A stretch of 64,000 nt of DNA, from assembly GCF_056746865.1 (NCBI RefSeq), contig NZ_CM163382.1, one strand, 5' to 3'. The position numbers were made by a program. Within the stretch, counting starts at the first letter, position 1, and each line of letters opens with the position of its first letter. This document shows, piece after piece, positions 3,001 through 6,000 of the stretch.

Positions 3001-6000
3001 TTTCTGACGAATTCCGGGGAGCGAGGGAACAGTTCAGGGAAATCGTTACTCAGTCGAGAAACACCGCTTTTCAGGCTAACTTACTGAAAACCTCAGAAGA
3101 ATTTGCCATCATATTCCGCAAGGAGTTAACTTCAAATATTGTCAATCGCCTCGTTGCAGATATTTCTGTAGTAACGAACCTGAATGGTTTTCAGGAACTG
3201 GGGTTCGGGAAACTGAATGCGTTATCCGAAGGACTCAAAAAACTTCTCTTTAAAGTCATCATGCGAAAACGTAATATCCTCACCTATGAGTTCAGGGGAA
3301 ATAAAATAATCAGGGATTTATATGACTTTTACAATGAAGGAGAGAATTATAAATTTCTGCCTCCTGAACTTAAATTCACCTTACCCCAACCAGATTCCTG
3401 TATATTTGAAATCAGCAAAAAACGAGCAGTGGTTGACTATATTTCAGGTATGATGGATACATTTGCAGTCAAGGAATGGGAAACTCACTGTCTGAAGTAA
3501 CACTGCCGATTACCAGAGGCGCATATTTTCCCGTTATGGTTATTGCGCCTTTATTCCGTTTCGGTGACAGGTTATTTTAAATATTCTGGAAATGCGTTGA
3601 TGGGCAAGAACAATTACCCTGAAAATAAATACAGGAAATGGTTTTCCACAGCAATAACATATCTTATTACAGGTGGTTTGTGCTGGTATATGTTGTGGGC
3701 ATCCGCTATATCTCATTATACTGTTTTACAAAATACGGTACCTGAATGGACAACATATTTTTGCACCGGTATAATCACCGGATCTCTTTCTTTTATTTAT
3801 GCATTTTATATCCGCACCTTTAACAGAACATTAAAGTCTTTATTAAATGCATTCACGGGGGGATTTTGTCTTGGATTTATACTGAGTCCTGATGAATCCC
3901 CTAATGATTTTGATAAAAATCATTAGGGGATTCATCAGTGCTTGACCTTGTTTAAAAGCTGTAATATCGCAATTTACTAACTCAATATCTAAATCCATTG
4001 GCTTGGATGTACCTCCTGCCTCAAGGAAGCTTTTTGAAAGCTGTCCAAAATCAATAGACTGATCAGCTGATTTCTGAGAAATGCTGCATGGAGCATCAAC
4101 AACAGTTCCGTTAAAAGTTACTTTACCCTGCCCCTGTGGAATAGTTGGAGCAGCATTTACACCAAAAGACACCACTGCCATAGCTACCGCACCGGCAATA
4201 ATCGACTTAATCATAAATAACAACCTCTTTTTCATTACTGAACACACCAGAGATATCTGGCAATTTAAAATGACCCGATTACCTTTAATAACCAGATCAA
4301 TACAAATAATATTCTCGTATTTTCAGGGCAGGTTATTTATCGACAGAATACTGATATAACCTGTCTGCTTTCTGATAAGGACTTCTTTTTATCTGTAAGA
4401 TAACTCCGGAATGCCATCATTCAGTCAAATGCCGACGACTCATCTGTATAATAAGGTGCAAGCCTTGCTGCAAGAGCATTCAGCCGTATAAGTCTCCCAA
4501 GTGTTGTACTGAAATACCCATTATTCATCTGGTATTTCTCGCAGACCTCCTTACGGGAGTGCCCACCTACCAGATAGTCCTTCATAGCCAGAATGACCCT
4601 GTCACTGTGAATAGAAGAAATACCTATCAGTAAAAAAAAATGCATTTCAGACATAGAGCCGGGCAACAGTACGCTCTCGCGTATATTCAGCAAAAACGCA
4701 TTTCCTGACCGACTGATGACTTCATGATGCGCCATGTTTCCCCCTTCTGTCGGGCCCCTGGATATATGCTTCCGGCCCGGAAATACTCTTCACGCAATAA
4801 GTTAAATTTAGTTTTTTATGTTGTAAATATTGATTTAAACGATCTTTTAACCCACAAAATAAAATTAAACTAGAATAAAACACTAATAATAAGAATGCGC
4901 TCAGATAAAAACATCATAGTAAATTGAATTTACAGCATAAAAGATCGTCTAAATGCATTTTTACGGACTTTCTTTTCACAGAAAAATAAAACGCAAAATG
5001 TGATACATATCAAATAAAGCAAATAAAAAGCAAATTCACTAAATTGCACAAATAAAGCAAACACAGCAAACACAGCAAACACAGAGAATAAAAATACCTT
5101 TCCGTTGATAACAGAAAGCATGATTTTTATTATTCGAAGAAACTTTGTTACAGTGAGATGAGTGAATATATGAAGAATGAAATACTGGAATTTCTGAACA
5201 GGCATGATGGAGGGAAAACGGCAGAAATTGCGGAGGCGCTGGCGGTAACGGATTACCAGGCCCGCTATTACCTGTTATTACTGGAAAAAGCAGGTATGGT
5301 TCAGCGCTCACCATTAAGACGGGGCATGGCAACATACTGGCTTCTGAAAGGAGAGAAGCAGGCGGGGCAGAGTTGTTCACTTTGCAAACTCTGCCGACCA
5401 GTGGTGATCCGTTCGGTGACGGGATTGGCAAGGTAGCCGGGTCCAGCCTGCACGCCGGCGTGGCGGCCAGGGCCGATGAACGCAAGAAGCTCGAACGGCT
5501 GTGCCGGTACATCAGCCGCCCGGCGGTATCCGAGAAGCGGCTGTCGTTAACACGAGGCGGCAACGTGCGCTACCAGCTCAAGACGCCGTACCGGGACGGC
5601 ACCACGCACGTCATTTTCGAACCATTGGATTTCATTGCAAGGCTGGCCGCCCTGGTACCGAAGCCCAGAGTCAACCTAACCCGCTTCCACGGGGTGTTCG
5701 CACCCAACAGTCGGCACCGGGCGTTGGTCACGCCGGCAAAACGGGGCAGGGGCAACAAGGTCAGGGTGGCTGATGAACCGGCAACACCAGCACAACGGCG
5801 AGCGTCGATGACATGGGCGCAACGGCTCAAGCGTGTTTTCAATATCGACATCGAGACCTGCAGCGGCTGCGGCGGCGCCATGAAAGTCATCGCCTGCATT
5901 GAAGACCCTATAGTGATCAAGCAGATCCTTGATCACCTGAAGCACAAAGCCGAAACCAGCGGGACCAGGGCGTTACCCGAAAGCCGGGCGCCACCGGCTG

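Follow-up and report, generated by a model that had tools for sequence, protein, structure and literature searches.

A pap operon relic with switch and regulator genes between a Tn10 scar and an ISCR2 resistance module in E. coli

A segment of 1.44 kb (positions 3939–5378) in the window, by which we mean the whole 64-kb stretch of DNA analysed here, is the leftover of an E. coli P-fimbria (pap) operon, in which the switch and the regulator genes are present and the pilus genes are not. The locus is an already known system, a hitchhiking relic, bounded on the left by an event of the tetracycline transposon Tn10 and on the right by a resistance-gene module; its best explanation, which we regard as very probable, is that a P-fimbrial pap operon within a tRNA-Phe-associated pathogenicity island was overwritten by resistance modules. 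A preliminary description of this DNA had proposed a pap phase-variation module left orphan, with neither structural nor assembly genes after it, and this was confirmed by Pfam searches, by alignment to the complete operon of PU-1 (papI-B-A-H-C-D-J-K-E-F-G(II)) and by tblastn; the span given there (3948–5380) does contain pap DNA, but its limits had to be corrected to those of the homology, 3939–5378.

The features of the locus are collected in Table 1. The pap region matched pap operons in 1338 of the 5426 complete E. coli genomes at E = 0, which argues against a chance match, and the alignment of 3939–5378 to PU-1, of 1440 bases, showed a single mismatch and a single 9-bp gap. Moreover, papB and the truncated papI (papI') are divergent genes separated by a 422-bp spacer, which is the layout of a pap-type switch. 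The complete chaperone-usher operon of P fimbriae (papIBAHCDJKEFG) is not found in the window: PapA is partial, PapC, PapD, the minor subunits and PapG are absent, and tblastn of the 64 kb with PapH, C, D, J, K, E, F and G gave no match at E < 1e-3. Since papH-papG are absent and papA is cut, the switch controls no fimbria. The context is that of an orphan regulator, with a papB-family gene that lacks a cognate fimbrial cluster and lies between a Tn10 scar and an ISCR2-floR-tet(A)-strAB-sul2 module. A permissive Rfam scan of 3400–7200 gave no RNA family.

Table 1. Coordinates of the pap relic and of its borders in the window.
Feature	Position	Strand	Description
Tn10 scar	3889..3938	.	50 bp, palindromic; two Tn10/IS10 outside ends
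Tn10 target duplication copy TGCTTGACC	3939-3947		one 9-bp copy, within papA'
papA'	3939..4214	-	major subunit codons 1-92, signal peptide included; start 4214
papB-papA intercistronic region	4215..4420	-	inside the 3939-5378 segment aligned to PU-1
papB	4421..4735	-	intact, 104 aa; Pfam PapB PF03333, E=1e-36
papI-papB intergenic switch region	4736..5157	.	422 bp, 31% G+C
papB-proximal GATC box ACGATCTTTTA	4839..4849	.	GATC 4841-4844
papI-proximal (distal) GATC box TAAAAGATCGT	4938..4948	.	GATC 4943-4946
CRP-like site TGTGATACATATCAAA, putative	4999..5014	.	core AATGTGATA...ATC.AAT conserved in pap and sfa
Three tandem copies of AGCAAACAC	5056..5082	.	Tandem Repeats Finder
papI promoter-like site TTGATA-17-TATTAT	5105..5133	+	consensus scan, 10/12 matches; pattern match only
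papI' fusion ORF	5158..5436	+	92 aa; RefSeq WP_001349530.1
ISCR2 (IS91-like) transposase gene, 3' part	5379..6026	+	cut at about codon 282 of 497

The integrity of papB, already claimed in the preliminary description, was confirmed by the match to PF03333, which covers profile positions 7–91 of 91, and by the 100% identity of its product to PapB of the complete PU-1 operon (RefSeq WP_000930062.1). The exact protein is found on at least 1000 contigs, and bears the UniRef name 'Major pilu subunit operon regulatory protein PapB'. The switch region is identical to that of PU-1 except for one 9-bp repeat unit, and its GATC boxes, CRP-like site and promoter block are conserved in the alignment from pap as far as sfa. 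The only two GATC of this region stand at 4841 and 4943, exactly 102 bp apart as had been noticed before, and both boxes are invariant in the pap/sfa alignment and in inverted orientation. In pap, the proximal GATC is inside Lrp site 2 and the distal one inside Lrp site 5, and a CRP site has been described in the papI-papB region (PMC11316696). The AGCAAACAC repeats, of which the window has three copies, PU-1 four and AF46 one, sit in a wider A/T-rich stretch with a 9-bp period (5011–5092). Judging from the published position of PapB site 1, and from the 9-bp periodicity that we take this site to have, the repeats probably fall in this upstream PapB-binding area. PapB site 1 has been placed near the papI start and the CRP site (PMC11316696).

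As for papI', residues 1–74 of the 77 of PapI are retained and identical to PU-1, the last three (STT) are lost, and residues 75–92 (18 aa) come from ISCR2 DNA translated in a foreign frame, the pap homology ending at 5378 and the stop codon lying at 5434–5436. The loss of the last papI codons to ISCR2-derived sequence had therefore been rightly recognised; its size is of three codons only, and 18 foreign codons were gained. Pfam FaeA (PF04703, E = 1e-30) covers residues 5–64 of the fusion, whose residues 5–76 can be aligned to 2HTJ, a solved structure of the PapI type. An AF2 model, obtained from a four-sequence alignment and confident in one of five models, places the helices and the wing at residues 3–63, and gives a pLDDT below 50 to residues 70–92. 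By Pfam, by the alignment to 2HTJ and in the model, the winged-helix domain is predicted to be intact, and the C-terminus would be unstructured as far as the Pfam boundaries and the shallow AF2 model can tell. On the other hand, the function of PapI' is not assured, because the foreign tail replaces a conserved C-terminus (…QSCSSTT in the three sequences compared, namely PapI of PU-1 and of AF46 and SfaC of MS20655).

Of the cis elements, the module still has its two GATC boxes, the CRP-like site and the promoter-like site of papI, and of the regulators papB and the winged-helix domain of PapI; it can probably still run the bistable switch of Dam, Lrp, PapI and PapB, in which Lrp binding is mutually exclusive and Dam methylates the two GATC differentially, so that ON and OFF states are inherited. 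Its products would be only PapB, the PapI' fusion and a secreted 92-residue fragment of PapA, with no fimbria; the fragment, lacking PapD and PapC, could not be assembled and would presumably be degraded. In ON cells, PapB could damp the switching of type 1 fimbriae by the known cross-talk with FimB and FimE; in fact, it has been reported that PapB represses FimB switching and promotes fimE (PMC7734786, PMC12388093). As PapB and all the known cis elements are intact, a phase-variable expression of PapB and a cross-talk to type 1 fimbriae, for which there is precedent, are plausible.

A different reading, possible in our opinion although we lean against it, is that the relic is dead, its switch being locked OFF or silent by a non-functional PapI', by H-NS silencing of the AT-rich region, or by both, with no PapB produced. 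Indeed, the move of Lrp to the distal sites requires PapI, and the activation of papI requires PapB (PMC11316696); the conserved STT of PapI is replaced by an 18-residue tail of foreign origin which contains cysteine, and regulator genes do decay in independent pap relics, as in AF46 and in an ST131 strain, which have a papB of 55 aa. However, the FaeA domain (5–64) and all the modelled secondary structure (3–63) lie upstream of the junction, papB and all the cis elements are identical to those of the intact operon, and OFF is anyway the default state in most cells with a wild type pap switch. At the other extreme, it seems unlikely to us that the locus is a self-contained epigenetic ON/OFF switch, with PapB and PapI' as its only outputs, which a chromosomal multidrug-resistance island carries along into many lineages of E. 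coli and in whose ON cells type 1 fimbriae are shut down or other pap-family operons cross-activated; read-through from the papI promoter might, in addition, make floR expression phase-variable. If this were true, a heritable heterogeneity in adhesion would come with the resistance island itself; and, if the PapB of the relic were expressed, the locus would offer, hypothetically, a natural system for the pap switch and the PapB-fim cross-talk free of fimbrial assembly.

On the right, the join was defined by alignment to a full ISCR2/ISVsa3 copy: the papI side reads CAGGCGGGGC-AGAGTTGTTC, the ISCR2 side CAGGCGGGGCGAAAGGTGTTC, and the two share a microhomology of 5–10 nt. The ISCR2 transposase is 5'-truncated, with Pfam Y2_Tnp matching at profile positions 97–179 only, in agreement with the RefSeq annotation. 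A transposition of ISCR2, which ends at oriIS or terIS, was ruled out as the cause of the papI truncation, as the join falls at microhomology in the middle of the transposase gene. As judged from the alignment, the papI 3' end is shown to have been joined to ISCR2 by an illegitimate recombination or deletion event, not by transposition. The ISCR2-linked module which follows the junction varies by strain, being either sul2 alone or floR-tet(A)-strAB-sul2. The joining of papI inside the ISCR2 transposase gene at microhomology, and the Tn10 scar at the left edge, were both absent from the preliminary description.

On the left, the homology of papA' to the intact papA of PU-1 ends at 3939, and residues 1–92 of the 182 of PapA are present (tblastn matched residues 1–95 of 182 at 97%); the product is matched by Pfam Fimbrial at residues 33–85 only, and its open frame runs through the scar to 3843, giving a protein of 123 aa. 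An earlier estimate that papA is cut after about 90 codons was thus accurate (92 are kept), while the end at 3948 was not, the homology reaching 3939. [quoted passage not shown] This type of remnant was reportedly described by Ross, Swan and Kleckner in 1979 and by Foster et al. in 1981 (both cited in bioRxiv 10.1101/2023.06.07.543989). Like such remnants, the 50-bp palindrome of the window is built from the two outside ends; its place is precisely that of a full Tn10 in related strains, and its GATA variant is shared with the IS10 copy adjoining papA' in APEC O2-211 and ECJXMCRH7. As RNA, it would form a hairpin of 23 bp (−39.5 kcal/mol, z = −10), with no U-tract. Unlike the remnant of a simple Tn10 insertion, the scar is not flanked by the same 9-bp duplication on its two sides: the left 9-mer is TACTGAGTC, whereas the right one, TGCTTGACC, is the duplication found in APEC O2-211. 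Because the flanking 9-mers differ, the two flanks derive from different insertion sites, and an insertion of Tn10 followed by its excision in situ between the present flanks was ruled out.

The history of the left border could be followed by comparison with APEC O2-211, in which a complete Tn10 lies inside papA with TGCTTGACC on both sides, and which retains papA-3', papH, papC onward to papG-II, tia, int and tRNA-Phe, together with the same papI/ISCR2 junction. The insertion of a complete Tn10 (tetB) behind codon 92 of papA, with duplication of TGCTTGACC, is thereby shown, and the intermediate survives in APEC O2-211. In the lineage of the window, Tn10 and everything beyond it, from the papA 3' end through papG, are gone, and the left flank is a dGTPase gene with a small ORF, joined through the 50-bp scar. 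Since the two flanks of the scar have no common 9-bp duplication, the left flank of Tn10 would have been exchanged, e.g., by recombination with another copy of Tn10, before or during the loss of the transposon. No genome compared was found to have Tn10 placed between the dGTPase module and papA', and none in the genome collections was colinear with the whole 64 kb. W2-5 matches 1–15815 and 50470–64000 and lacks 15816–49338, which genomes of the PK8276 type have elsewhere; the recBCD-thyA-fuc region of W2-5 suggests that the island of this strain is at pheV rather than pheU. The locus traces the passage from a pathogenicity island to a resistance island: Tn10 inserted, an excision scar was left, ISCR2 was joined at microhomology and modules were later swapped.

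The exact papI/ISCR2 junction was found in 187 of the 5426 complete E. coli genomes (about 3.4%) and the scar junction in 132 of the same 5426, all of them chromosomal; the papI/ISCR2 junction occurred once on a plasmid (IncI). At least 60 genomes are 100% identical over a core of 952 bp, which fits a spread within the antibiotic era. This identity among the carriers is that of a recent spread with resistance genes and not of selection: conservation as a sign of selection was considered and rejected, as the lack of any difference over 952 bp in at least 60 genomes fits a recent origin. Hitchhiking with the resistance genes at its borders is the simplest explanation of how widely the relic occurs. 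The preliminary description had left room for a simple decayed duplicate, beside a second complete pap operon; however, in 57 of 60 carriers with the identical core the chromosome has no other pap/sfa-type regulatory region.

We consider it distinctly improbable that, instead of hitchhiking, papB, the switch and papI' have been domesticated and are kept by selection as an orphan regulator that tunes type 1 or other fimbriae, its benefit travelling with the resistance island. In all of the 60 best-matching carriers papB is intact and identical; being the sole pap-type switch on the chromosome in 57 of 60, its products would not be redundant, and a fim target (fimB-fimE-fimS) is present in 4658 of the 5426 complete E. 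coli genomes (86%). There is also the precedent of the papB/pefB paralogue on pMB2, which suppresses fim-dependent autoaggregation (PMC7734786), and the cassette was carried along when an IncI plasmid captured part of the island. Nevertheless, a recent common origin already predicts that at least 60 genomes show not a single substitution over 952 bp, so that this identity gives no sign of purifying selection; the boundaries were set by accident, through the Tn10 insertion and the microhomology join, at least one carrier (H31) has an IS903B insertion somewhere in the matched pap segment, and our literature search found neither a phenotype tied to the papI/ISCR2 junction nor an earlier description of the junction or of the relic.

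Finally, a role of the relic as promoter donor, in which the papI promoter would read through papI' and the ISCR2 fragment into DUF3363 and floR, or the papBA promoter antisense into the dGTPase gene, so that the neighbours are heterogeneously expressed, is very unlikely. In its favour, papI', the ISCR2 fragment, DUF3363 (6057–6941), floR (7158–8372) and lysR' all lie on the + strand, on which a single weak terminator-like site (5814–5829) stands between papI' and floR, and the scar hairpin on the other side has no U-tract. Against it, ISCR2-DUF3363-floR is common on plasmids that have no pap in front of it (the ISCR2 part is matched by 3478 plasmid records), so that floR is independent of the papI promoter; furthermore, the genes beyond this papI/ISCR2 junction in APEC O2-211 and ECJXMCRH7 (glmM'-sul2) are encoded on the other strand. 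The papI promoter is, besides, weak and dependent on activators, which further counts against this role.

When compared with known systems, the hitchhiking relic is closest to the papI-papB Dam/Lrp switch of pap, with which it shares the divergent genes, the AT-rich spacer of ~420 bp, the GATC boxes 102 bp apart, the CRP-like site, a canonical PapB and the winged-helix domain of PapI; it differs from the pap operon by the lack of papH-papG, by papA being cut at codon 92, and by the three residues lost and 18 gained in PapI. A second comparison is with the papB/pefB paralogue of pMB2 (Monarrez and Okeke 2020, PMC7734786), likewise a PapB-family gene amid mobile and resistance DNA with no cognate adhesin cluster; no adjoining fimbrial genes have been described for this orphan, which acts in trans on fim-dependent aggregation (PMC7734786). 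However, the identity of the pMB2 gene to PapB is of about 29% only, whereas the window has a canonical PapB with its complete native switch; furthermore, the origin of the latter by truncation can be traced stepwise, and its location is chromosomal, with one plasmid copy. Two further genomes, AF46 and the ST131 strain 2017_APHA, also have papI, papB and a damaged papA, which is truncated in AF46, where IS3-family elements flank the locus, and frameshifted in 2017_APHA. Their alleles are about 94–95% identical, with the 55-aa papB and other damage, and represent independent events; thus, pap remnants arise repeatedly.

The relic also bears on virulence gene surveys, in which papB and papI are counted as P-fimbrial "adhesin/virulence" genes, and to which it would contribute such matches without a fimbria. 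In one of these reports, papB was found in 25% of representative carbapenem-resistant E. coli (PMC10771496). Given that about 3.4% of the complete E. coli genomes have the relic, which in the sampled carriers is usually the sole pap-type switch, calls of papB or papI only should not be read as P-fimbriation. The preliminary description did not mention that PapI has lost three residues only, nor that the relic occurs commonly in public genomes, where it is already annotated, the exact PapI' fusion protein occurring on at least 1000 public contigs.

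The DNA between 3939 and 5378 is genuine pap DNA, as indicated by ORF and Pfam analysis and by alignment to strain PU-1, which carries a complete operon in the order papI-B-A-H-C-D-J-K-E-F-G-II and from which it differs by one mismatch and one 9-bp gap. The preliminary description, whose coordinates were correct to within 9 bp, had reported an intact papB and a papA cut after about 90 codons; PapB (104 aa) is 100% identical to that of PU-1, and residues 1–92 of the 182 of PapA are present. The absence of pilus structural and assembly genes was borne out as well, with zero matches to the other Pap proteins across the whole 64-kb window. 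That papI had lost its last codons to ISCR2-derived DNA also held, with the qualification that only STT is missing (residues 1–74 of 77 are kept) and that an 18-residue tail has been added. The positions of these and of the neighbouring features are collected in the table.

Features of the window (primes mark incomplete genes)
Feature	Position	Strand	Remarks
IS3-family element	956-2117		upstream of dGTPase-family gene
dGTPase-family HD-domain gene	2247-3500		
Small predicted membrane ORF	3543-3926		
50-bp palindrome (scar)	3889-3938		perfect arms, two Tn10/IS10 outside ends; directly left of papA'
papA', fimbrial-subunit fragment	start 4214	-	ORF + Pfam
papB, PapB-family protein, 104 aa	4421-4735	-	ORF + Pfam, E=1e-36
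24-bp block	4807-4830		conserved pap to sfa
CRP-like site	4999-5014		conserved pap to sfa
9-bp repeat AGCAAACAC	5056-5082		presumed upstream PapB-binding area
papI promoter-like site	5105-5133		pattern match
papI', FaeA/PapI-family protein	start 5158	+	ORF + Pfam, E=1e-30
Resistance cluster	5379-14022		truncated ISCR2 first
DUF3363	6057-6941		
floR	7158-8372		then lysR fragment, second ISCR2 fragment
tet(A)	8972-10171		then tetR(A)
aph(6)-Id	11507-12343		
aph(3'')-Ib	12343-13146		
sul2	13207-14022		
Direct repeats	14746-15815 and 49339-50409		~1.07 kb, 92% identical
Autotransporter	16254-20129		C-terminal beta-barrel; RefSeq: S6 peptidase; in 33.5-kb segment
AbgT transporter	20441-22000		in 33.5-kb segment
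FdrA	35565-37112		in 33.5-kb segment
YadA-like trimeric autotransporter	47656-49476		in 33.5-kb segment

The two GATC sites lie exactly 102 bp apart, as first described, at 4841 and 4943; they are the sole GATC pair in the 422-bp intergenic region, each within an inverted ACGATCTTTTA box, and alignment showed these boxes to be conserved from pap to sfa. The intergenic region has the PU-1 sequence, save for the copy number of the 9-bp repeat, present three times here, four times in PU-1 and once in AF46, a strain with another decayed pap locus, and this number could tune PapB binding. In the published model the two GATC sites lie within Lrp sites 2 and 5, PapI moves Lrp onto the distal sites, PapB both activates papI and regulates itself, and CRP and H-NS also take part (PMC11316696). 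As judged from sequence, the relic retains all the DNA needed by this model. R61 and C65, which Xia and Uhlin reportedly described in 1999 as DNA-binding residues of PapB, are kept. PapI' retains the whole Pfam domain, and in the structure model the helices and wing (residues 3–63) are all kept, residues 70–92 being below pLDDT 50; since this model is shallow and STT, lost here, is shared by the other PapI/SfaC sequences in the comparison, the function of PapI' is uncertain. At sequence level the locus is a truncated form of the well-known pap epigenetic switch, as seen from how its genes are arranged, from its GATC boxes and from PapB; it is not a P-fimbrial operon.

The left boundary is explained by comparison with APEC O2-211, in which a complete Tn10 (IS10-jemABC-tetR-tetB-tetCD-IS10) lies inside papA exactly at the scar position, with TGCTTGACC on both flanks, and is a simple transposition. 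Beyond it, this strain retains the 3' part of papA, papH, papC through papG-II, tia, an integrase and tRNA-Phe. E. coli ECJXMCRH7 has the same Tn10/papA' junction, and the GATA variant in the window scar is that of the papA'-adjoining IS10 copy in both strains; bases 3939–3947 are the Tn10 target-site copy. In size and form, the scar agrees with what was reported as the classical Tn10 nearly-precise-excision product (Ross et al. 1979, Foster et al. 1981). The left flank, TACTGAGTC, which is the end of the small membrane-protein ORF that follows the dGTPase-family gene, differs in sequence from the right flank. The left arm was therefore probably exchanged, recombination with a second copy of Tn10 being the simplest route, and this exchange would have removed the remainder of the pap operon. 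The final 12 codons of the membrane ORF come from the scar, so that this ORF may be truncated. As RNA, the scar would form a hairpin of −39.5 kcal/mol without a U-tract, and an E. coli plasmid with no relation to the window also matched a 54-base stretch spanning it, in a different context.

On the right, pap homology ends at 5378, the ISCR2/ISVsa3 match begins at 5359, and a three-way comparison showed that papI CAGGCGGGGC-AGAGTTGTTC overlaps ISCR2 CAGGCGGGGCGAAAGGTGTTC. The join interrupts the transposase gene, of 497 codons, at about codon 282; from this location and the overlap, the junction is no ISCR2 end but the product of illegitimate recombination or of a deletion mediated by microhomology. 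What follows this junction differs between strains: glmM'-sul2 in APEC O2-211 and ECJXMCRH7, DUF3363-floR-lysR'-tet(A)-tetR-strBA-sul2 in the window and in E. coli W2-5. The junction is therefore older than the later module exchange.

Among 5426 complete E. coli genomes, 187 have the papI/ISCR2 junction and 132 have the scar/papA' junction, always on the chromosome; the sources include human, poultry, pig, cattle, dog, wildlife and water. The 92-aa fusion protein (WP_001349530.1) has exact matches on at least 1000 contigs; hundreds of publicly available genomes already have the relic annotated, and no description of the junction was found in the literature searched. The 952-bp papB-switch-papI' core is 100% identical in at least 60 genomes. 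A second complete pap operon was looked for in 60 of these, and 57 had a single pap/sfa-type regulatory region per chromosome, so that in most carriers the relic is not the degenerate second copy of a functional operon. One plasmid copy was found, on the IncI-gamma blaNDM-5 plasmid pNDM5_LS003; its scar has lost another 27 bp. Positions 10769–26174 of this conjugative plasmid are a captured chromosomal-island stretch, running from the dGTPase gene through scar, papA', papB, papI' and ISCR2-floR on to YfjI and AlpA genes. The island lies at the tRNA-Phe beside dsbD (pheU) in APEC O2-211 and appears to be near pheV in W2-5, from recBCD-fuc synteny about 180 kb away, which suggests that it, or parts of it, moved between two tRNA-Phe sites or lineages.

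The locus produces no fimbria. The switch can probably still change between its OFF and ON states, at low frequency, and the products in ON cells would be PapB, PapI' and a PapA fragment that is secreted; complete silence of the relic is less likely. With no chaperone available, the PapA fragment would undergo degradation and could set off Cpx. Acting in trans, PapB inhibits switching by FimB and increases fimE (PMC7734786, PMC12388093), and such trans-action on fim has been demonstrated for an orphan PapB-family gene carried by a resistance plasmid (PMC7734786). Given this precedent, and since 86% of complete E. coli genomes have fimB-fimE-fimS, cross-talk to type 1 fimbriae in carriers is plausible by analogy. 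It is improbable that the relic is an orphan regulator under selection. That all copies are identical is expected of an origin after the start of the antibiotic era and is uninformative on selection, papB is decayed to 55 aa, beside papI and a damaged papA, in two independent remnants (AF46, NZ_OZ546993.1, with papA truncated and IS3-family elements on the flanks; ST131 strain 2017_APHA, with papA frameshifted), and in one carrier an IS903B is inserted inside the matched pap segment. For these reasons we consider that the relic most likely hitchhiked with the resistance genes. That it donates a promoter to floR or antisense transcripts to the dGTPase gene is very improbable, the floR module being widespread without pap and the genes after the same junction being oppositely oriented in other strains. 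In genome surveys, papB/papI matches from the relic can pass wrongly for P-fimbrial virulence.

A thymidylate-synthase-like gene also lies upstream of the dGTPase-family gene, and this region could be a defence module of the nucleotide-depletion type. The direct repeats flank a 33.5-kb segment, absent from W2-5, that was probably gained or lost through recombination between them; it also contains an ABC transporter, and within its YadA-like adhesin gene a 99-bp unit is repeated in tandem about six times (48224–48798).
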